Of a DNA stretch of 48,712 bases, positions 662 to 33,658 are shown piece by piece. The DNA lies in the UHGV virus genome UHGV-1370921; one strand, 5' to 3'. How positions within the stretch are numbered: the stretch's first letter is position 1; every line of letters begins with the position of its first letter. A model generated the notes under the pieces. The model was not told the origin of the DNA. It did no database searches and was given only the letters and a program-made list of their open reading frames with translations. Source of the stretch: a virus. A program made the translations under genes and the position numbers.

Positions 662-2082
662 AACATGTACGCCTTACCTTGTCTGAATCGTTCCTCAACA
701 CGCCGCCACACGTCACCGACAGTAATGTAACCTTTATGGTCCGTGTCAAGTCCTGCGTTCTGATTGTACGCTCTGGAAGGTGATGTGTACATCACGGTAG
801 TGGAAGGTTTACCGATGAATGCCGGACTAAATACAGCCATGTACACATCACCCATTGTTTTGTAACGCCCTTTGTACTGATTGAGATAATCAGTAATCGG
901 ACCCTTCACCTGTTCGGCTGCAGTCATTGACAGGATGATATTTTTATTACGACCATACTTACTCTGAAACGCACTCGTCCAGCCGGCATTAGTAAACTGA
1001 ATCAGTCCTACCGCGCCGGATTTGCTGTTTTTTGACTGTGGGTTGAAGTTAGACTCAGCAGAGATTACAGCCATAATCCAGTTAGGACTGATACCCAGAC
1101 TTTGCCCAAGTTTACGCACCTCAGTACGGAAATCCTGTTGCTGACTGGCATCCTCACCCTGCACACCCACGCGACCGTAAATAAGACGATTACCAACGTC
1201 AGCATTTGCCGTGGTGGTATCCATTGACCCGGCGCGCACAGCTTTGACAAATGTGTACCAGTCGGGACCGTGTGTATCGCCGGTATGCTGAATGGTCTGA
1301 ACGTTCCAGTCACCTTCCAGTTTAGCGTCGACGGTTGTCTGGAACTCCACCGCGCCGAAATCGAATTTAGGCCATTTTGACTCGATATTGAGCACCGATG
1401 CGGGTGTCATACGGGGGTCAAGACGCATTTTAACGTCACAGAATACGCCATCAATGCCGCCGTGAAGCGTGGGTGCGTCAATCATCCCGGTGGCGGAACT
1501 GATTTTGATGGGCGTGGCTTTACGGTCATCAGATGGAAATCCGACGAACACCTGTCCGGCGTACAGATGCCATTCGAAGCCATATGCTTTGGCCAGAATG
1601 TCAAGTTCCTTACTGATATCGGAGCTGACGTTATAGCCCCCAGCCATGACAATAGAGGTAAATTTATCCACACTATTGACAAGATATAGTGGTTTCGACC
1701 AGTCCTGTGCGAGACTGGTCAAGACGTCAAACAATGTCACCCCCTTACCGAAACTCGCACTCGTTGTCCCACCGTCGAGCACGTTGCTACCGCTGCGACA
1801 CGTCACACGTGTGATAATATCGGTACCGTCACGAATAGTGAAAACATTGGTGACAAATCCGGTAAAAATCTGACCCATACGCGACTGATACCCGGCGCGA
1901 AAAACAACGGTCTGGTTCGGTTCAATCTTCGTTGTCGGTGCGAGGTTCCACAAGCGAAACTCACAGGTGCTCAGGCTGTCGCCGGTATACGTTGTTACAT
2001 CGAACGAGCACCGGAGCATCGGGTACGACTGCGTAATGAAATTCTTCGTATCAATGAGTATTTCATACTGGCGCAAATCCAT
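658..2082 (-). CDS. tail protein with lytic transglycosylase (SLT-like) domain
   Basis: 474 aa. Contains ISAESNFNPQSKNSKSGAVGLIQFT, matching the SLT catalytic-Glu motif. Lies directly downstream of the tape measure gene. 4-nt overlap with the next ORF. Confidence 0.55.
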   Translation of the reverse strand: MDLRQYEILIDTKNFITQSYPMLRCSFDVTTYTGDSLSTCEFRLWNLAPTTKIEPNQTVVFRAGYQSRMGQIFTGFVTNVFTIRDGTDIITRVTCRSGSNVLDGGTTSASFGKGVTLFDVLTSLAQDWSKPLYLVNSVDKFTSIVMAGGYNVSSDISKELDILAKAYGFEWHLYAGQVFVGFPSDDRKATPIKISSATGMIDAPTLHGGIDGVFCDVKMRLDPRMTPASVLNIESKWPKFDFGAVEFQTTVDAKLEGDWNVQTIQHTGDTHGPDWYTFVKAVRAGSMDTTTANADVGNRLIYGRVGVQGEDASQQQDFRTEVRKLGQSLGISPNWIMAVISAESNFNPQSKNSKSGAVGLIQFTNAGWTSAFQSKYGRNKNIILSMTAAEQVKGPITDYLNQYKGRYKTMGDVYMAVFSPAFIGKPSTTVMYTSPSRAYNQNAGLDTDHKGYITVGDVWRRVEERFRQGKAYML

Positions 2083-2084
2083 TG

Positions 2085-3437
2085 TCAGTAACTCCTTTGC
2101 CGGGTCTGGTCAATTGCCTGTGGATACACCTGTGTCTCAAGATGATTCACGGTATAACGACCAATTGCATTACCGTCCAGTATCACGTCACCCTGTGTGG
2201 TGAAATTGCCGTTAAGCTGAATCGGACGGTTTATGGACTCCATAATCTGAGTCAGTTGCTGACTTTGCTGTGCGTAATTGTTGGTCACCGGACTTGCTTC
2301 GGCACTGTATGAACCGTCGTTGGTTATACTTTTATCTTTCGTCGGTTGCTGCCACACAAATGATTGATACGGTTTATCTTCCGGCTTCCGGGTGTAGTCG
2401 TAATCTGGTTTTGATGGATTATTCTCGGCGCTAAAAGACCTCCCAATATCACGGGTATCGAATCCTGTTTTCTCCTTGATCCACTCCGCTGTATTATTGG
2501 CACTACCAACAATATATTTATCATACCAGTTACCACTTATGATATCCGTCGGTAAATCAGGGTGTGCTTTCAGCCAGTTTGTAAAACCCGTGGCAGCAGA
2601 CAGGAAACTATCGGACAAGGTTTTGATGCTGGGTGCGAGAACATCTGCAATAGTGTTACCCAGTCCTTCCATTTTCTGTTGAGTGTCAATTATGGTCTGA
2701 TTGATCGCATCCAGTGCCGCATTATGTTTCTCGGTGTAACCCAGTTCAGCGGCACGGGCTTTTGACACTTCCAGCGTTGTAGCGCCGAACTCCTGCCACA
2801 CTCTGACGGTAGCCGGGTCGAGACCTAAAATATCCGCTACGTTGCTCTGACGCGTCGTATCGAGGCGCTGGAACTGCCCGGCGATGTCGCTGTAAATATC
2901 TTCGCGTGTACGCCCGGTGGGATTATCGACACGAATTCCCGCAACCGCCAGTTGCTGAATCATCCCGGCATCACCGGTCTGAATACGGTTAATCCCACGC
3001 TCGATATTTAAAAGGCTATTTGTCGTTGCTTGCCGGTCACCTCCACGCTGTTCAGCCAGTGCGCCAAGTCCGTAAACCTCAGATGGTCCGAACTGACTGG
3101 TTGCAAGCTGGTTGTTCAGGTCGTAAGCCTGTTGTGCTTTCTTCGATTCAAACGCCCACGCTGCGCCGACACCCGCAGCAACACCGGACATCGCAAGTCC
3201 GGCACCTTTGAATGTGGCGACCAGACTCATGATGCGTGATTTTGAATTTTCTACACCGGTTTTAACACCCTGGTCGAGCGACTTGCCGACATCGTCCATC
3301 TGACCACCGGTTTTCTCCGCCGATTTGCCGAGATTGTCAATGTCTTTTTCAGCCTGTTCAGCACCTTTACCATCGTAAGAGATGCCGAGACCGATGAGGA
3401 ACTGAGTGATGATATTAGCCATTATTCGGGCACCCAC
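2085..3437 (-). CDS. tail tape measure protein (short)
   Basis: 450 aa with Ala/Gly/Gln-rich low-complexity helical regions and an N-terminal hydrophobic segment. Sits after the chaperone pair, the canonical tape measure position. Confidence 0.5.
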   Translation of the reverse strand: MGARIMANIITQFLIGLGISYDGKGAEQAEKDIDNLGKSAEKTGGQMDDVGKSLDQGVKTGVENSKSRIMSLVATFKGAGLAMSGVAAGVGAAWAFESKKAQQAYDLNNQLATSQFGPSEVYGLGALAEQRGGDRQATTNSLLNIERGINRIQTGDAGMIQQLAVAGIRVDNPTGRTREDIYSDIAGQFQRLDTTRQSNVADILGLDPATVRVWQEFGATTLEVSKARAAELGYTEKHNAALDAINQTIIDTQQKMEGLGNTIADVLAPSIKTLSDSFLSAATGFTNWLKAHPDLPTDIISGNWYDKYIVGSANNTAEWIKEKTGFDTRDIGRSFSAENNPSKPDYDYTRKPEDKPYQSFVWQQPTKDKSITNDGSYSAEASPVTNNYAQQSQQLTQIMESINRPIQLNGNFTTQGDVILDGNAIGRYTVNHLETQVYPQAIDQTRQRSY

Positions 3438-3718
3438 AGAAGATGGTTGTCGACGCCGAGGTTGTCAATGGTTACCTCATCGCCCACAAAGAAGAAGCGA
3501 CCCAACCCGGCGCGGTATGCTTTACTGACCTCAGCATTTGGGACAAGCATTGCACCTGTGATGTAGTTGATACCATCCTGTGAGACAGTCATTGTCCACG
3601 CGGGCTTGTCGGTATAGCTGATGTAATCCAGCGCAAAGTCGAGAACGTTATCGCCCAGCTTGACCGTGAAGGTCTGATGAGCGTTAGCCGCGCCATTATT
3701 TAGGGGAATTTCTTGCAT
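3422..3718 (-). CDS. hypothetical tail-associated protein
   Basis: 98-aa ORF between the chaperone pair and the tape measure gene. Its start overlaps the end of the frameshift extension. Confidence 0.35.
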   Translation of the reverse strand: MQEIPLNNGAANAHQTFTVKLGDNVLDFALDYISYTDKPAWTMTVSQDGINYITGAMLVPNAEVSKAYRAGLGRFFFVGDEVTIDNLGVDNHLLWVPE

Positions 3719-4279
3719 TGTTCATCGCCTCGATATACTTACCCTGCAATTCATCCATCGCAAAGTGAAATTGTTCGACTTCAGCAAGCGATATTGTACC
3801 ATCTTTTAACTGCGCCCATGTACAAAGAGGTGGACACACTCCCTCGATACCCGTGCAAACCCGCATAAAGTACCAGTTAACCGGGCTGGGCCGCCCGGTG
3901 TCCCTTACTCGTCTTTGTTTGCGTTTTGCACGTAATCGAAAAAATCAGCATAAACCCACAGGAACAATTCTGCCAGCAGAGTGTTTAGCGTCATCATCTT
4001 ACCAGGAAAATCATTCACTGTGATTTTAGTGTTAGTACCAGCCGTCATTGCTTTACTCAGAAGTACATCGGTAATACGTTGCTTGATGTGATGCGGTACA
4101 GCAGTGAGCAACAGGGTTACATCTTTGACACCGAGTTCGCCGCCGTTTTTGTAAACGTTGGCGGCATGTGCGATAAACTGTGCGCTCACCAGGGATAATA
4201 GTTCGTCCTGCTCGATTGCGGAAGGCATCGCGGCGTTTACGGTGATGTCGCCAGCGGTAAAAGTTTTAATGAGTGACAT
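3696..4279 (-). CDS. tail assembly chaperone -1 frameshift fusion product (GT/E'-like)
   Basis: The -1 frame is open from 3944 to the stop at 3696-3698. Slippery site T_TTT_TTC lies on the minus strand at 3938-3944, with zero-frame codons gat ttt ttc. The extension translates as FFRLRAKRKQRRVRDTGRPSPVNWYF...AEVEQFHFAMDELQGKYIEAMNNARNSPK. Confidence 0.5.
3905..4279 (-). CDS. tail assembly chaperone (G/E-like), zero-frame product
   Basis: 124-aa acidic protein upstream of the tape measure gene. RBS GGAGAAATAAG precedes the ATG. Contains the slippery heptamer T_TTT_TTC near its 3' end. Confidence 0.5.
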   Translation of the reverse strand: MSLIKTFTAGDITVNAAMPSAIEQDELLSLVSAQFIAHAANVYKNGGELGVKDVTLLLTAVPHHIKQRITDVLLSKAMTAGTNTKITVNDFPGKMMTLNTLLAELFLWVYADFFDYVQNANKDE

Positions 4280-24371: not shown

Positions 24372-24395
24372 AAAAAAAAAGCCCCGAAGGGCTTA
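24372..24395 (-). terminator. rho-independent terminator after the primase-helicase gene
   Basis: Minus RNA AAGCCCuucgGGGCUU followed by U9. Overlaps the TAA stop of gene 24393-26750. Confidence 0.6.
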
Positions 24396-26750
24396 TTTAG
24401 TTTCTGCAAAGGCCATTGCACTTGTATCACCCTGTGCCGCTGCGTAATGACGTGCTACGTCCGCCGCATTTGTGAGGTTAGCGTGAATGTGTCCAATCTT
24501 GATATAGAGACGTGGTTTACCACCATCAATCATTATTACATTGTTCACACGCCCATCCTTGAGTGCCGGGTGCCAGTCGTAACCCAGTTGACGCATCATG
24601 TCACGACGTTTACCCACTGGTACGGCTCTGTCAGCACGCATCTGGCGTAACAGGTTGTCCAGTGCCTTACTGCTCACCCAACCACCCGCAAAACCCTGTC
24701 GACCCTCGTCGATCGCTTCCATAATTTCCTGTTCGACGCTGCCGAGTGATGCTGTCACAGCTTCGTGTGTACTGCTTGTCTCTGGTGCACGCTGGCAATG
24801 TGTCGCCGGGTTAAATTGTGCGGGGATGTCGTAGTTCTCCAGATAATGTGTTACGGCCGCAAAACCACCACCGCGTTTGAGCCAGTCGTACAGGTTGGGG
24901 AAGTAGTCACCACCCATACCGTCGCGCACTATGTCGATATGCTCCTGCTGCGCCGTGTAGAAAATAGCGAACCGGCGGTCATTAGCCGTCTTGCGCACGG
25001 CGTTCTTGTGGTTACTGTTAAACATGAAGTTAGCACACAGTCGGTGCATTACCTGGTCCTGTTGCATCGCACGTTTAGCGAGGTACTCACCAGTAATCAT
25101 AGGCTTGAGTGTTTCAATCAGCTCAAGTTTCTGCTCAGGAACGTAAATATCCTCCACGCCGATAAATATTTTATCGAACAACCAGGCGTTAAACTTCTCG
25201 CCAATTTCCTGTGCTGGCGGCATGTGGCTGTAGCGTGAACCGACCGCTTCCATTACGCACAGTGTGAACAGTGTTTTACCGTTGCCTTCAACGCCCTGCA
25301 ACAATGGTGCCCACTTGAACTTGGTTCCTTTGTACTGGACACACGCTGCCATGTAGGATAGCAGAATGTCGCGGTCACGCTCGACGGGTAAAAGTTTAGC
25401 CAGATGAGTGAGGAAAGGTGCCACATCGCCCGGGACGCTCGCCACCGTCACCGGTACATATGCGTTGACATGACGCAGACCGTCTTCTTCGATAATGGCA
25501 CCCTGCGGCAGGTCCGGACGGAATGTTGAGCGGTCAACTTTCGGAAACATGATACACTGGTTCTCGGTGAACGCTTCGAAAGCCTTTTTGGTGGTCTTCT
25601 CATTACCGTCATCCAGTGCAAACACATAGCCACCGTACATCGCGTTAAACTGCTCAGACTTCAGCATCTGACCGTTGGGCGTGAGAATACGGTGGCTGTC
25701 TGCCACATATACGCAGCCTTTGAAGTGGTCAACAAGCTGCGAGCCGCCAATAAACTGATACCCACTGCGGATAACCGGTGCACCTGTCTCAATGACCTGA
25801 GCAGGGGTCACCAGTTCAATCGGTGCGCCGACGTTGTAGTAGGTAGTCTGACGTGCGCAAGCGCCCAGAATGGAACGTCGCATGTACGATTTGTGACTGT
25901 CCCATTTAGGACGTGCCAGCGCAGACAGACGCATCAGGCGTTCAATACGTTCACAGTTACCACCGGTCCAGAACGCTAAATGCTGGGCTAATGCGGCGTC
26001 AGCACTTGACCCGTCATACTCGCGGTCCTCATCCGGATACGCATCACTCAGTACCTCGACATTGCGCGTCCACAGGTCTTTAAATGTTGCTTTACCACCG
26101 AATACAGCCGCAACACCACCTTTACTTGAACAGGCTTTTTCGATGAGTTTCGCATCATCTTCAATCGGGCATGAGCCTTCAGCGTGAGTTGTGGTCCATT
26201 CCGTCGCCGTAACTTGCTCGGTCTGCGGGAAATACCGGGCAACCGTGGTGTTGAGCGGCACAGACGCGTTAAACATCATGTCACCCCGTGCACCACTTCC
26301 CAGACAGATAAAACGGTCAGACGTGTACAGTTCAATGTGCAGCGGAATATTTTTACAGCTATGCTCGGGGATGGACGGACTGTAACCAAAAATGTGCAAG
26401 CCTTTACCGCTGTTGCTCACTTCCACATAACAACCGGCAAAAGTGGTGCACAACTCCAGCGCGAGCGGTGACCAGGTATTATCGTCCTGCAGTGCCCCGT
26501 CGATATCCACGCAGAAACGACCGTCACCCGTAAGAATGACTGCAGGACGATATGACTCACCCAGTGCAGAAGCCGCCGCAACCGCCTGAGCGTGAGTCAT
26601 ACGGTCCGCAACGTGCAGACTGACCACATCGCCAGCAGCGTTACACGGCATCTTCTCCGTGCGCCCGGGCTTCTTCTGTGAAGGCACTGTTTTGCAGACG
26701 ATAAAGTGCAGGGAATCAGCCCCCTGCACCGGGGGATTCATATGTGTCAT
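24393..26750 (-). CDS. DNA primase-polymerase / SF3 helicase (PrimPol-D5N-helicase type)
   Basis: N-terminal region with SNSGKGLHIFGY (primase-polymerase-like). Central and C-terminal region with Walker A GVEGNGKTLF. 785 aa. Confidence 0.65.
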   Translation of the reverse strand: MTHMNPPVQGADSLHFIVCKTVPSQKKPGRTEKMPCNAAGDVVSLHVADRMTHAQAVAAASALGESYRPAVILTGDGRFCVDIDGALQDDNTWSPLALELCTTFAGCYVEVSNSGKGLHIFGYSPSIPEHSCKNIPLHIELYTSDRFICLGSGARGDMMFNASVPLNTTVARYFPQTEQVTATEWTTTHAEGSCPIEDDAKLIEKACSSKGGVAAVFGGKATFKDLWTRNVEVLSDAYPDEDREYDGSSADAALAQHLAFWTGGNCERIERLMRLSALARPKWDSHKSYMRRSILGACARQTTYYNVGAPIELVTPAQVIETGAPVIRSGYQFIGGSQLVDHFKGCVYVADSHRILTPNGQMLKSEQFNAMYGGYVFALDDGNEKTTKKAFEAFTENQCIMFPKVDRSTFRPDLPQGAIIEEDGLRHVNAYVPVTVASVPGDVAPFLTHLAKLLPVERDRDILLSYMAACVQYKGTKFKWAPLLQGVEGNGKTLFTLCVMEAVGSRYSHMPPAQEIGEKFNAWLFDKIFIGVEDIYVPEQKLELIETLKPMITGEYLAKRAMQQDQVMHRLCANFMFNSNHKNAVRKTANDRRFAIFYTAQQEHIDIVRDGMGGDYFPNLYDWLKRGGGFAAVTHYLENYDIPAQFNPATHCQRAPETSSTHEAVTASLGSVEQEIMEAIDEGRQGFAGGWVSSKALDNLLRQMRADRAVPVGKRRDMMRQLGYDWHPALKDGRVNNVIMIDGGKPRLYIKIGHIHANLTNAADVARHYAAAQGDTSAMAFAETK

Positions 26751-27084: not shown

Positions 27085-27113
27085 AGTATGGCACAGGTTG
27101 ACGGAGTGGTCAA
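27085..27113 (-). promoter_or_regulatory. sigma70-like promoter TTGACCactcCGTCAa-N-CATACT (minus strand)
   Basis: Variant of the palindromic -35 family. 17-nt spacer. Upstream of the TetR-like gene. Confidence 0.45.
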
Positions 27114-27853
27114 CTACTGAGAAGTCTTAACCAGTATTGAATCTCGGGTGTCCATTTTAACCACTCTGTAGAACCTTTGAACCCAGTTAACTTCGCCGAT
27201 TCAAATTCTTTATGAAACATTTGTTCAAATTCGGAAACTGTTTTTCCGTCTGCCACAATTGTCTCAACTAAGAAAAAATTGAAAGGTGTACTTTTGACCA
27301 ACTCTTTGATTCTTCTTTCCAAACAGTTTGTTATGCCGATTTTGATGAGTCCGCCGTTTTCGGAGCGCAGCGCATAAAGTGTCCCTTCCGCTGTTTTCTG
27401 ATAACCGAAACCCGCACACTTTGGGCACCGTGTCCCACTATAGATGAAATGCCTCACCTTTAAATCCCATTCCAAATCATGAAGTTCGCAGTAGCAAGTA
27501 AATAGACTGTCCGAATTTTCATAAACTCCCTTCCATTTTACAAAACGATATGGGCTATCTTTGCATAGTTCGACAATTTCTCTTCGCCTATCGTCTTCGG
27601 GTGTTCTTAGTCGAATGCTGGCCTTTTCTACCGCACACTTTTTACATCGTTTTCCAGACCATAGGAAACGGTGCACGGTGGTTATCCAATCACCATGTTT
27701 TTCGCAGTTACATTTGAATTTACTTTTGCAATTTTCATAATTATCCACCCAACCGTTGAAACTGTATTGAGTCCCTGCACACAATGAATTTATTTCATCG
27801 ATGACCGTGAATTCACTTCTTGCGAGTTTCATAATGGACCTTCTCCTGACCAA
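27110..27853 (-). CDS. homing endonuclease, T5orf172/GIY-YIG-like with two Zn-ribbon repeats (HEG2)
   Basis: C-terminus LYALRSENGGLIKIGITNCLERRIKELVKSTPFNFFLV...GFKGSTEWLKW. Repeats of the form CEKHGDW...GKRCKKCA. Confidence 0.7.
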   Translation of the reverse strand: MVRRRSIMKLARSEFTVIDEINSLCAGTQYSFNGWVDNYENCKSKFKCNCEKHGDWITTVHRFLWSGKRCKKCAVEKASIRLRTPEDDRRREIVELCKDSPYRFVKWKGVYENSDSLFTCYCELHDLEWDLKVRHFIYSGTRCPKCAGFGYQKTAEGTLYALRSENGGLIKIGITNCLERRIKELVKSTPFNFFLVETIVADGKTVSEFEQMFHKEFESAKLTGFKGSTEWLKWTPEIQYWLRLLSS

Positions 27854-28302: not shown

Positions 28303-28484
28303 TGAGACTTCTCCCGACGTAAAATTCTGCGACTCTGACGCAATAGAACAGTGTACGTAAATTTAGAAATTTCTTCCCAATATGTACCATCGTAATTTTC
28401 AATACCCCAATAATATTTGACATCTTCTTCTTTTACTTCTAAACCACCGTAGTAGTTACCAATATTCCCAATTGGTGTACTCAT
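28299..28484 (-). CDS. small hypothetical protein
   Basis: 61 aa, Tyr/Trp-rich. Confidence 0.3.
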   Translation of the reverse strand: MSTPIGNIGNYYGGLEVKEEDVKYYWGIENYDGTYWEEISKFTYTVLLRQSRRILRREKSQ

Positions 28485-31153
28485 GACCCAATCCTCTCTC
28501 TTAATTTATCCGCATCAGCCGCTTTGAGCGCCTGCGCCTCCAGCCATGACACACCGTATGTCAGATAGAACTTGCGAAATATTTCACTGTCGCTCAGACC
28601 TTCCGCACGGCGATACCCGGCCCACTCCGCTAATTTTAGGTCCAATTTGACGAGCGCGTCAAGACGGTTTTCATGTAATTTAACGTTTCTCTTCACAGCA
28701 TGAGGCGGTAAACCGTGACCAATCATCTTATCTCGGTACTGGTTGACATCCTCGCGTGCAGCAACAACTTCATTGCGCATTTGTGCCAGTACGTCCGGGT
28801 CAAGCTCGTACAAGTCACCGTCCACAAACTCCGGGCCACTACGTTGCGCAGGTTTAGGTACAGGCTCACCGCAGTCAGGACATGCGTCACGGAATCGTTC
28901 GTACACTGCCGCGCAAGCTGTACACACGCGCACCGTCGATGTTTCACTTTTACCTGTGCGACGCTCCCGGCGGTCAAGACTCCACTCACGCGGTGCATCC
29001 GGTAAACCGTGGCGCATGACGTTGCCCACATGGTCAATAATAATCGCGTGGGTTTTACCTGGTAACGGTCTGAGGGCGCGGCCAAACATTTGACTGTACA
29101 TACTGTACGATTCAGTTGGACGACCAAATGAAACAACCTCAATGCCGGGACAATCGAAGCCCTCGGTCAGAATTTCCGAGTTAACTAATTGTAATATCTC
29201 TTTATTTTTAAATTTTCGCACCGCTGCGAATCGTTCAAGGTCGGGAGTATTACAGCTTATTGCCGCCGCCGGGACACCTGCTTTATTATACTGTTCCGCG
29301 ATTTCCTCAGCACTTGCCACATCGACGGTGAATGTCACGCCTGATTTACCACGGGCAATTTTCAGATATTGAGCAACAACATCGCCAGTGATGGTTTTCT
29401 CATCGTGTGCCACCAGTGATGAACCGTTAACGACTTCGCGCATCTGGTTCAGGTTAAAGTCCCCCGTGGAATCGCTGACCTTAATTTGTTCACGTGAGAA
29501 ACTACTTGGAGGTGCAAAAATTTTGTAATCGGTCAGATACCCATCTCGTATGAGTTCCCCCATTGCCACGCCTTCGAACATTGTGTCAAACACGCCATCC
29601 GCGTTACTTCCCAGGCCGTTACCATCCGCACGACACGGCGTAGCTGTAACCCCCAGCCCGCGAGCATTGGGGAACATCTGTACAGCTTTACCCCATTTGT
29701 TATCTTTAAGCACATGGTGTGCCTCATCGATAACCCACAGACGAACAGACGGTAACCAGTTAGCAAGTTGCTCTCCACGCCGGATGATTGTGTCCACGCT
29801 GGCGACCGCGTGTTTACTTCCTGCGTCGTAAAATGTCTTACCCAGTTCATCCATGTGAATCTTCACACAGTTTTTCACGGTTTTATTCGAACCGACAATG
29901 CGGTGATAGATGCCGTTTTTGGCAAGCGTGAGACTCATCTGACTGACGAGTTCCTGGCGGTGTGCAATGGCACATGTCGCACCTTGTTCGGCAGCGATGA
30001 TGGACGAGAAAATTACCGTGTTATGCGTAACAGTGAAATCACCCAACATGAACAATCTGTCACCATCTATTTCAAATCCGTAATAATCGTCCACTTCAAG
30101 TGGTTCAACTTTAATTCCAGTGACTAAAACAGATTTCTTCTGTTTCCTTTCCGCGACATTGTCTTTGTGTCGATTGCGCACGAATGGTAAACCAGAGAAA
30201 TCACCGCTAATGGTCATGCGCCAGTAATCACCAGTAAACCCGTTTTGACAGCTTTTTTTACACGGTTTCATGTAGCACGCGAACCCGAGAGAGCGCGCGA
30301 TAAAAGTTAAATCGTCAGCGAGTTGCTTCACTTTCAGCGTCACTTCGAAATAACCTTTGGATAGATGCCCGTCACTATCTAGTAACCCTGCGAGAACTTG
30401 TTCTCGAACCCGACGAGAAGTGGTTTTATAAACCTCAGGGATATGTTTATTGAGATACAAATTGTATTTTCTTAACGCTGAAAGCATTGACCCCGTGTGC
30501 TTACCATCACGCGGTAAAAAGTAAGTCCACGCTTTGTTATCTGGTCGATTATGATATTTCCTGACCCTGTGTCCCGTCTCACTTGCGTAACTGTGGATAT
30601 ATTCGACTATTTCGTCGTCGGCTGTTGTTATTGCTGCTGCGTTGGAGTTTCCATCACCTAACCACAGACCTAACATGTACGGCGGTAAAATTGGGTCGAA
30701 ATCTTTCTCCTCCCAGTCAACAGGCGCTCTCCACCCTTTGTAAAGATGTTTCCAGTGTTTTCCTTTATTGAGGTAATCACGCACTGAGATGTTTTCTATC
30801 TCACCAGCGCGGTCATCCTTGCCGGTATTGGTGCGCTTTAAACTTAGGATGTGACTCTCATTGACAACATATGGGTCGCCTTTTACCGGTGTCACCCTGT
30901 ACATTTTCTCCCGCCCCCGTGCAAGCGACAACACGCGCCGAGGTTTACTGTCGGGTCCCATTAGCAACTCACCTTGCACAATATCTTCTACGGGTTTAAT
31001 CGAACCGTCATACATTAAAACGGGTGTACCTTTACCTAGACACTTCCCCCCGCCTGTAGCGAGTACCGCCAGGATTTTCCCTTGCGGCTTTTGTTGCCAG
31101 TAGTCATTCAGCTGACTAACCAATGTTTGCTGATATGGTCGTAACTGCATCAT
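28481..31153 (-). CDS. SF2 DEAH-box DNA helicase containing an intein
   Basis: The extein has Walker A LATGGGK|T split by the intein. Also DEAH (VIDEAHH), TAT (motif III) and QxxGRxxR (motif VI). The C-terminus has a CxxC...CxxC zinc ribbon. Confidence 0.8.
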   Translation of the reverse strand: MMQLRPYQQTLVSQLNDYWQQKPQGKILAVLATGGGKCLGKGTPVLMYDGSIKPVEDIVQGELLMGPDSKPRRVLSLARGREKMYRVTPVKGDPYVVNESHILSLKRTNTGKDDRAGEIENISVRDYLNKGKHWKHLYKGWRAPVDWEEKDFDPILPPYMLGLWLGDGNSNAAAITTADDEIVEYIHSYASETGHRVRKYHNRPDNKAWTYFLPRDGKHTGSMLSALRKYNLYLNKHIPEVYKTTSRRVREQVLAGLLDSDGHLSKGYFEVTLKVKQLADDLTFIARSLGFACYMKPCKKSCQNGFTGDYWRMTISGDFSGLPFVRNRHKDNVAERKQKKSVLVTGIKVEPLEVDDYYGFEIDGDRLFMLGDFTVTHNTVIFSSIIAAEQGATCAIAHRQELVSQMSLTLAKNGIYHRIVGSNKTVKNCVKIHMDELGKTFYDAGSKHAVASVDTIIRRGEQLANWLPSVRLWVIDEAHHVLKDNKWGKAVQMFPNARGLGVTATPCRADGNGLGSNADGVFDTMFEGVAMGELIRDGYLTDYKIFAPPSSFSREQIKVSDSTGDFNLNQMREVVNGSSLVAHDEKTITGDVVAQYLKIARGKSGVTFTVDVASAEEIAEQYNKAGVPAAAISCNTPDLERFAAVRKFKNKEILQLVNSEILTEGFDCPGIEVVSFGRPTESYSMYSQMFGRALRPLPGKTHAIIIDHVGNVMRHGLPDAPREWSLDRRERRTGKSETSTVRVCTACAAVYERFRDACPDCGEPVPKPAQRSGPEFVDGDLYELDPDVLAQMRNEVVAAREDVNQYRDKMIGHGLPPHAVKRNVKLHENRLDALVKLDLKLAEWAGYRRAEGLSDSEIFRKFYLTYGVSWLEAQALKAADADKLRERIGS
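30020..31042 (-). mobile_element. LAGLIDADG-type intein (341 aa) inserted in the helicase P-loop
   Basis: Starts with Cys1 (CLGKGTPVLMYDGS). Block B is NESH. Two LAGLIDADG motifs: LGLWLGDGN and LAGLLDSDGH. Ends ...FTVTHN with a +1 Thr that restores GGGKT. Confidence 0.8.
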
Positions 31154-32890: not shown

Positions 32891-33658
32891 ATGCCTGCGA
32901 AACTGACCACCGACAAATTGATTGACAAATTCATAAAAATACACGGTAAGCGGTATGACTATTCTAAGGTCGTGTATGTCAACCAGTGGCAACGGGTGAT
33001 TATAAAATGCAGGCAACACGGTGAATTCACGCAAACGCCTAACCAACATTCAAGAGGGGCGAACTGTCCCTCTTGCTCAATAATCACAGCATCGAGAAGT
33101 AGAACCGGTGAATTTGACAGATGGGTCGCTAAATGTAATGCCGTACATAATTTCAAATATTCTTATAACCACTCTGGAAAATTTAAATCTACCCGAATGG
33201 TGGACATACGTTGCCCTGAACATGGTCGTTTCTTACAGGTAGCATATGACCATGTCAGAGGGGCGGGTTGTCCGATGTGTTCCGATTCCGGATTCAACAG
33301 GTTGGCGTTAGGTTATCTTTATGTGCTGATATCCAATGACCTACGATTTTTCAAAGTGGGTATAACTGGAAACATACCTAAAAGGTTAAGAAGATTGTCG
33401 TACAATACCCCGTTTCACTTTCATCTCATATCTTCTTACCAGTCAACGGGTAAAAGTGTTGAGGAAATGGAAAGGTCAATCCACGCTCGTTTTAAATCTG
33501 CCGGAATGGAAGGTTTCGACGGCGCTACAGAATGGTTGAAAACAAATAACCAAATAGAGGAAGTGCTTCATGAATTATCCGAAAGTAAGTGCATCAAACC
33601 AGTGGATGAGGTGTCACGGGTCGTTCAATGCCCAAAATATATATCCTCCGATCACTAA
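32891..33658 (+). CDS. homing endonuclease, T5orf172/GIY-YIG-like with two Zn-ribbon repeats (HEG3)
   Basis: C-terminus LYVLISNDLRFFKVGITGNIPKRLRRLSYNTPFHFHL...GFDGATEWLK. Repeats of the form CRQHGEF...GANCPSC. Confidence 0.7.
   Translation: MPAKLTTDKLIDKFIKIHGKRYDYSKVVYVNQWQRVIIKCRQHGEFTQTPNQHSRGANCPSCSIITASRSRTGEFDRWVAKCNAVHNFKYSYNHSGKFKSTRMVDIRCPEHGRFLQVAYDHVRGAGCPMCSDSGFNRLALGYLYVLISNDLRFFKVGITGNIPKRLRRLSYNTPFHFHLISSYQSTGKSVEEMERSIHARFKSAGMEGFDGATEWLKTNNQIEEVLHELSESKCIKPVDEVSRVVQCPKYISSDH

Follow-up and report, generated by a model that had tools for sequence, protein, structure and literature searches.

What are the 341 residues that split the Walker A motif of a phage helicase, and can they leave the protein again? 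The question is raised by the UHGV virus genome UHGV-1370921, whose whole stretch of 48,712 nucleotides (nt) we analysed and call the window. The interrupted gene lies on the minus strand of a genome that belongs to Jedunavirus (Klebsiella phage JD001-like), the top nucleotide match of the gene being 95.5% identical. We conclude, with a probability of roughly 0.85, that the insert is a canonical (class 1) intein, in which a two-motif LAGLIDADG homing endonuclease of the PI-SceI type is embedded. The open reading frame (ORF) is divided as follows, with lengths in amino acids (aa).

28481..31153, minus strand: complete precursor ORF, 890 aa and 99.7 kDa; N-extein, predicted intein and C-extein of a superfamily 2 (SF2) RadD-like helicase
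31043..31153, minus strand: N-extein, 37 aa, C-terminal LATGGGK; Lys37 is the −1 residue, in Walker A GGGK
30020..31042, minus strand: predicted intein, precursor aa 38-378, 341 aa; Hint splicing domain split by a LAGLIDADG homing endonuclease domain
30713..31042, minus strand: N-terminal Hint part, intein aa 1-110; block A with Cys1, block B with N61-E-S-H64
30143..30712, minus strand: LAGLIDADG endonuclease domain, about intein aa 111-300; motif 1 L124-G131 (LGLWLGDG), motif 2 L217-G225 (LAGLLDSDG)
30020..30142, minus strand: C-terminal Hint part, intein aa 301-341; blocks F and G, terminal T-H340-N341
28481..30019, minus strand: C-extein, 512 aa and stop; +1 nucleophile Thr (TVIFSS), DEAH, TAT, QxxGRxxR and a CxxC...CxxC zinc-ribbon-like motif

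Boundaries of the insert and the empty site

In the translated ORF, the insert begins with CLGKGTPV and ends with FTVTHN, and TVIFSS starts at precursor residue 379. The insertion point therefore falls between Lys37 and the Thr of Walker A GGGK/T. The initial annotation, made from the letters of the DNA, had placed these 341 residues at 30020-31042, between LATGGGK and TVIFSS. Position and sequence were both exact, and only the minus strand had been left unstated. We rejected a plus-strand reading of 30020..31042, whose translation is full of stops. The other landmarks it had listed were also all located. Besides Cys1 and the HN end followed by Thr, these are NESH (precursor aa 98-101), LGLWLGDGN (161), LAGLLDSDGH (254), DEAH (476), TAT (503) and QMFGRALR, which is the QxxGRxxR motif (688-695). 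The computed masses (precursor 99.7 kDa, spliced helicase 60.7 kDa, intein 39.0 kDa) agree with the ~100 and ~60 kDa that it had expected before and after splicing. The junction of the spliced product, predicted from the exteins, is ...ATGGGK-TVIFSSIIAAEQGATCAIAHR. Pfam recognised ResIII, Helicase_C, Hom_end_hint and Hom_end in the precursor, and PHROG 16 ('DNA helicase') matched it at 3.6e-85. The intein has a G+C content of 45.0% versus 50.7% in the C-extein. An identical protein is already public (DAI64921.1, from a metagenome-assembled Caudoviricetes genome), in a record that carries no intein annotation.

Close relatives have the same gene with an empty site. We surveyed helicases with 85% identity or more to the spliced extein. 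The intein was present in 15 records (about 12 phages), including pKp383, KpTDp1, MEW1, JD001, Kpn112 and several RCIP isolates, and absent from 18 (about 15 phages), including KpVB3, phiYH65, Geezett, SBP and 1611E-K2-1. The intein-free Jedunavirus helicases (KpVB3, Geezett, 1611E-K2-1, RCIP0045 and others) are proteins of 548-562 aa with a continuous GGGKTVIFSS. They read ...LATGGGKTVIFSS... and, without interruption, ...LAVLATGGGKTVIFSSIIAAEQ... across the site. The DNA junction of the intein-free alleles of KpVB3 and Geezett is ...GTACTGGCAGTGCTTGCGACAGGTGGTGGGAAGACTGTTATTTTCTCGTCTATTATC..., and its version with the synonymous markers of the intein-plus alleles is ACGGTAATT. Removal of this in-frame insert thus restores Walker A GGGKT, as the initial annotation had predicted. 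Automatic alignments are misleading at this point. MAFFT wrongly aligned the short N-extein of the intein-free protein to the C-terminus of the intein, tblastn did likewise (its '14-547' alignments), and direct inspection of the sequences resolves the matter.

These empty sites bear on whether the insert ever leaves the protein. It could be an integral accessory domain that is never excised, or a non-splicing Hint domain of the bacterial intein-like (BIL) type, with the 100-kDa protein as the functional form; Hint-fold domains that cleave without ligation do exist. We regard this as extremely improbable. The insert splits the GGGK/T ATP-binding loop and the unspliced protein should not bind ATP. 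It also has the full class 1 residue set, including the terminal HN and the +1 nucleophile, and its nearest structures are bona fide splicing inteins (see below). Finally, orthologues at 92% identity are precisely without it. The initial annotation had left room for an insert that aligns as an integral helicase domain in homologues; we rejected this candidate, because the close homologues lack exactly these residues.

Sequence, fold and catalytic residues

The identification of the insert as a LAGLIDADG intein within the Walker A Lys-Thr pair, already proposed in the initial annotation, is borne out by profiles, by sequence and fold similarity to PI-SceI, and by the exact boundaries. Searched alone against Pfam, the insert matched Hom_end_hint (E=4.4e-20, aa 1-70), Hom_end (3.1e-11) and LAGLIDADG_3, the last two within the endonuclease domain. 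Among solved structures, the yeast VMA1 intein PI-SceI is nearest in sequence (E=2.9e-22), in an alignment that spans both ends and the endonuclease core. Given these E values, the match of the insert is far above chance. We modelled the intein with AlphaFold2 from an alignment of 87 sequences (mean predicted local distance difference test score 96.1, predicted template modelling score 0.93). The top match of the model in the PDB, searched with Foldseek, was again PI-SceI (1vde, E 8.7e-26, template modelling score on the query 0.83). Lower ranks were taken by the homing-endonuclease inteins TliVMA, PI-PfuI and PhoVMA, and then by the Prp8 inteins, which have only the Hint part, and by I-DmoI, a free LAGLIDADG enzyme. 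In the model, beta-strands extend across intein aa 7-105, the N-terminal Hint part. Together with Foldseek and Pfam, it predicts that the N- and C-terminal parts form the horseshoe beta fold of Hint domains. The endonuclease domain is modelled as alpha-beta-beta-alpha-beta-beta-alpha repeats, i.e. the pseudo-dimeric LAGLIDADG fold, and matches domain II of PI-SceI and I-DmoI in Foldseek.

The insert has the complete set of residues for class 1 splicing (Cys1, N61/H64, H340, N341 and the +1 Thr) and for LAGLIDADG catalysis (D130, D224, K199). In the terms of class 1 inteins, these are a Cys at position 1, a block B of the form Asn-x-x-His, and a C-terminal His-Asn followed by Thr. The two LAGLIDADG motifs, LGLWLGD130G and LAGLLDSD224G, each end in a catalytic Asp. 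We counted the conservation of these residues in the alignment of 87 family members.

Cys1 (precursor Cys38): 86/87 members
Asn61 (block B): 85/87 members
His64 (block B): 87/87 members
Asp130 (LAGLIDADG motif 1; aligned with a PI-SceI motif Asp): 86/87 members
Lys199 (aligned with PI-SceI K301): 85/87 members
Asp224 (LAGLIDADG motif 2; aligned with a PI-SceI motif Asp): 86/87 members
His340 (intein C-terminus): 86/87 members
Asn341 (intein C-terminus): 86/87 members

The nearest known system by sequence and fold is thus PI-SceI, the VMA1 intein of Saccharomyces cerevisiae (PDB 1vde, 1lws) and the archetype of bifunctional LAGLIDADG inteins. Both begin with Cys1, reading CLGKGTPVLMYDGSI here and CFAKGTNVLMADGSI in PI-SceI. 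Both have two LAGLIDADG motifs, with an aligned Asp pair and a Lys equivalent to K301, and the C-terminal HN of the insert aligns with ...VVHN. Block B of PI-SceI, in a region outside the sequence alignment, has the same Asn-x-x-His form. The differences are also clear. Overall identity is about 23%, and PI-SceI has 454 aa whereas the insert has 341, about 65 residues taking the place of PI-SceI aa ~52-205. PI-SceI has a +1 Cys and a block F His where we find Thr and Arg, and its host is a V-ATPase subunit rather than the P-loop of a phage SF2 helicase.

From established intein chemistry, we can derive the steps that these residues would support. In the 99.7-kDa precursor the P-loop is split by the intein; hence ATP would not be bound properly and the helicase would be inactive. 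Cys1, helped by block B Asn61/His64, would undergo an N-S acyl shift at the Lys37-Cys38 bond, and the hydroxyl of the +1 Thr would attack the thioester (transesterification). Cyclisation of Asn341, helped by His340, would free the 39-kDa intein, and an O-N shift would then produce the native GGGK-T peptide bond and an active 60.7-kDa helicase. During co-infection with an intein-free relative, the free intein (or the precursor) would cleave the P-loop codons of the uninterrupted allele, approximately at ...GCGACAGGTGGTGGGAAG/ACTGTTATTTTCTCG... (the slash marks the site). Repair from the intein-bearing copy would copy in the intein along with adjacent extein sequence, i.e. homing with co-conversion.

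Selection, recombination and mobility

Is the endonuclease part of the intein maintained, or is it a relic? We compared the intein with the JD001 allele, to which it is 91.5% identical in aa sequence. The ratio of nonsynonymous to synonymous substitution rates (dN/dS) was 0.06, both across the entire intein and when the endonuclease domain was taken by itself. The synonymous rate was about 0.8-1.1, near saturation in the 5' part. The intein, including its endonuclease domain, is therefore under strong purifying selection. The same pair of alleles is a mosaic. In the first ~600 nt, nucleotide identity between the window-type and the JD001-type intein is 66-80%, rising to 95-99% in the last ~400 nt, which places a recombination breakpoint inside the endonuclease domain. 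The pattern extends to the flanks. Across 30020..31153 (minus strand), nucleotide identity to JD001 is 66-80% in the N-extein and the 5' ~600 nt of the intein, and 92-99% in the last ~400 nt with the C-extein.

Comparison of intein-plus and intein-minus alleles gave a different picture on either side of the site. The first two codons of the C-extein are ACG GTA in all intein-plus alleles versus ACT GTT in all intein-minus ones (synonymous differences at nt 3 and 6). Only 4 of the 1290 C-extein sites show other fixed differences between the two groups; their linkage is inconsistent, the window siding with either group, and the C-extein thus behaves as a freely recombining pool. Hence, we found no long co-conversion tract on the C side among the sites fixed between the plus and minus groups, only nt 3 and 6 being linked to the intein. 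The N-extein (111 nt) is only 65-67% identical in nucleotides to intein-free alleles, versus 94-96% for the C-extein, and its haplotype is perfectly linked to the presence of the intein in the 17 sampled alleles. We observed a second mosaic region in the helicase, at the C-terminal ~90 aa (28481..28750, minus strand), where the window resembles KpVB3 and Geezett. In the protein alignment, the tails of pKp383, KpTDp1, MEW1 and JD001 are divergent and differ in length, and the blastn matches of intein-plus relatives end at window position 28751.

Patchy presence in close relatives, junction-proximal markers and a linked N-extein are together the signature of a mobile element; they are compatible with homing without being proof of it. 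These patterns fit homing with co-conversion, and are also compatible with a past invasion followed by ordinary recombination. The intein is probably a maintained, mobile element, and the sequences suggest that it is likely to be mobile at present. The initial annotation had called it active. We infer the same from the intact catalytic residues, the purifying selection and the patchy distribution.

The endonuclease could nevertheless have lost its activity, leaving a splicing-competent intein that is inherited vertically as an immobile passenger and shuffled by nothing but general phage recombination. The strong reduction of the PI-SceI-type DNA-recognition region would fit such a loss, and the mosaic lineages described above show that ordinary recombination does act on this gene. 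We consider this scenario unlikely. The intein retains both catalytic Asp and the active-site Lys, which hardly vary across the family, and purifying selection on its endonuclease domain (dN/dS 0.06) is as strong as on the splicing domain. Decaying endonucleases normally gather replacements and deletions. The intein is also patchily distributed among phages whose C-exteins mix freely.

Strong purifying selection would also fit an intein that had been co-opted as a post-translational switch. Under such conditional protein splicing, activation of the helicase would be delayed or gated in the infected cell, with metal ions or the redox state of Cys1 as possible triggers. Because the intein sits in the P-loop, the helicase could work only after splicing, and two reports document conditional splicing for P-loop inteins of DnaB, in mycobacteria (PMC6195587, PMC7360933). 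A required regulatory role sits poorly with the many equally fit relatives that have no intein, and selection on the endonuclease domain is more simply explained by mobility. We therefore hold a regulatory co-option to be very unlikely, more so than the loss of endonuclease activity.

Several points weigh against an intein that splices and homes as we propose. The first concerns block F, where the His found in PI-SceI and in the Salmonella phage intein is Arg329 in the window, a change that could slow Asn cyclisation. Family members differ at this column (H 33, R 19, G 14, K 8 and N 8 of 87). We rejected Arg329 as a disabling change for this reason, and it is probably tolerated. The second is that the DNA-recognition region of PI-SceI is largely missing, since query aa 52-117 replace PI-SceI aa 52-205; as a consequence, the recognition of the target may differ from that of PI-SceI. 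Thirdly, the divergent N-extein could have arisen by ordinary mosaic recombination between phages rather than by co-conversion associated with homing. Patchy distribution alone cannot separate current mobility from a past gain with vertical descent and recombination. Lastly, splicing, cleavage of the target and homing are all predicted from sequence.

Host helicase, related inteins and their annotation

The initial annotation had described the host protein as an essential, replicative SF2 helicase. The SF2 part is well founded. The extein has motifs I (GxGKT), II (DEAH), III (TAT) and VI (QxxGRxxR) and two RecA-like domains, matched by ResIII and Helicase_C, and a CxxC...CxxC motif follows the second RecA-like domain in the sequence. 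The best match of the spliced extein is the NCBIfam family RadD/YejH (4.3e-42), and in the PDB it matches RadD 6jde (1.2e-28 over aa 3-372). The NCBIfam equivalog cutoff for RadD is not reached (144 bits versus 720), and for this reason we describe the protein, on its sequence, as a RadD-like SF2 helicase but not as an orthologue of RadD. Neither 'replicative' nor 'essential' is supported. We found no DnaB_C or D5/primase-helicase domain in the extein with Pfam and NCBIfam profiles. Nearby, 24393..26750 (minus strand) encodes a protein of 785 aa that combines DUF5906 with an NrS-1 polymerase-like helix-bundle domain and matches phrog_1829 ('DNA primase') at 5.5e-180. This protein is likely the primase-helicase of the phage. 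A primase-polymerase/DUF5906 (D5-like) protein is a more usual candidate for a replicative primase-helicase than an SF2 helicase. Hence, we rejected the term replicative helicase for the extein.

The intein belongs to a large family, detected with tblastn in 723 phage records. A large protein collection yielded 101 full-length relatives at 40-57% identity. All of them (101/101) start with Cys and 99/101 end with HN; 65 have Thr and 35 have Ser at +1, and the insertion point is GK/T or GK/S in almost every case. Their hosts carry many unrelated P-loop nucleoside triphosphatase (NTPase) domains, including ResIII, DEAD, DnaB_C and thymidylate kinase in precomputed Pfam assignments. Further Pfam accessions among the hosts are, we presume, AAA, PhoH, thymidine kinase, ABC and SNF2. 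At 38-40% identity, relatives occur in a Vibrio phage helicase (VGK/TT) and in a Segzyvirus protein annotated as a terminase (GGRG/SGKT).

Two related inteins also reside in phage helicases. Those of Salmonella Jerseyvirus (e.g. vB_SalS_ABTNLsp11241) are 49-51% identical across the full 341 aa, have the same architecture and the common terminus ...LGDFTVTHN, and occupy a like site, Walker A GSGK/TSS. Their host is another helicase (821 aa, N-extein of 33 aa) in Guernseyvirinae siphoviruses, they have kept the block F His, and the records are annotated 'intein containing helicase precursor', unlike the Jedunavirus records. The intein of Pseudomonas phage Touem01 (XAI70625.1) is 48% identical, at the equivalent site TGAGK/TVVFSA. 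Here the helicase is of the same type, with a 37-aa N-extein, and the block F variant Asp-Arg-Leu-Phe is shared. Touem01 itself, a 91.6-kb phage of Pseudomonas, is unrelated, and its protein bears no annotation beyond 'putative helicase'. A third comparison is with the TerL1-a intein of mycobacteriophage terminases and other 'classic P-loop' inteins, which are inserted between the invariant Walker A Lys and the nucleophilic Thr (PMC5050341). They share the class 1 chemistry, the LAGLIDADG endonuclease and the patchy occurrence among related phages (PMC5050341; PMC4760082). They differ in having a terminase ATPase as host, in belonging to actinobacterial phages, and in their low identity (26-30% for the tblastn relatives).

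The insertion site itself is well known. The K/T position of the P-loop has been described as a 'classic' place for intein insertion (Kelley et al. 2016, PMC5050341), and inteins cluster in the P-loops of ATPases for replication, recombination and repair (Novikova et al. 2016, PMC4760082). The initial annotation's 'notable' was therefore an overstatement, all the more since public records already label same-site inteins in Salmonella phage helicases. Elements of this type, with this insertion site and this chemistry, were already known, also from phage helicases; what is new is that the intein goes unmentioned for Jedunavirus. We found no mention of it in the Jedunavirus records or the literature searched, where a co-mention of JD001 and an intein proved unrelated. 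The helicase, whose protein cluster has 171 members, is publicly named 'hypothetical protein', 'putative helicase', 'terminase large subunit' or 'Type I site specific restriction modification protein', and the intein is not mentioned. For example, RefSeq names the JD001 helicase 'terminase large subunit', and DAI64921.1 bears the restriction-modification name. The terminase label was probably transferred via the intein, because the intein region matches terminase PHROGs (phrog_19299, 1.6e-20). The terminase annotation of Segz_1 (1743-4262) gp70 may also stem from its intein.

Other mobile endonucleases lie close to the helicase. At 27110..27853 (minus strand), downstream of it and between a nuclease gene and a TetR-like gene, the window encodes a free-standing 247-aa endonuclease with CapR and T5orf172/MUG113 domains (phrog_681 'endonuclease', 4.4e-53). 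In megablast, only the flanks of this gene were matched in 72/72 related phage records, and it thus looks like a genome-unique insertion within this collection. A second T5orf172/MUG113 endonuclease (255 aa, 32891..33658, plus strand) sits just upstream of a DUF2800 exonuclease gene and is present in 5/72 related records (RCIP0113, RCIP0054, RCIP0061, RCIP0068 and RCIP0086). With the intein, the replication module therefore has three patchily distributed endonuclease elements. In the close relative pKp383 (NC_071136.1, 1535-2095), an HNH endonuclease gene directly follows the intein-containing helicase gene. It is another mobile endonuclease at the helicase locus, and is absent from this place in the window.

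For protein engineering, this is one Cys1/Thr+1 intein among hundreds, without an evident special property. One speculative idea, to which we give little credence, is that the clade of inteins at 40-57% identity moves between non-orthologous genes by recognising the DNA that encodes Walker A ('P-loop hopping'), and may also time helicase activation by conditional splicing. If this were true, Jedunavirus would be a tractable natural system for homing, co-conversion and marker exclusion in co-infection. Intein-plus and intein-minus Jedunavirus genomes co-circulate at about 95% identity. Klebsiella Jedunavirus are candidates for phage therapy, and the plus and minus alleles in near-identical genomes are a ready pair for tests of homing in a Gram-negative lytic phage.

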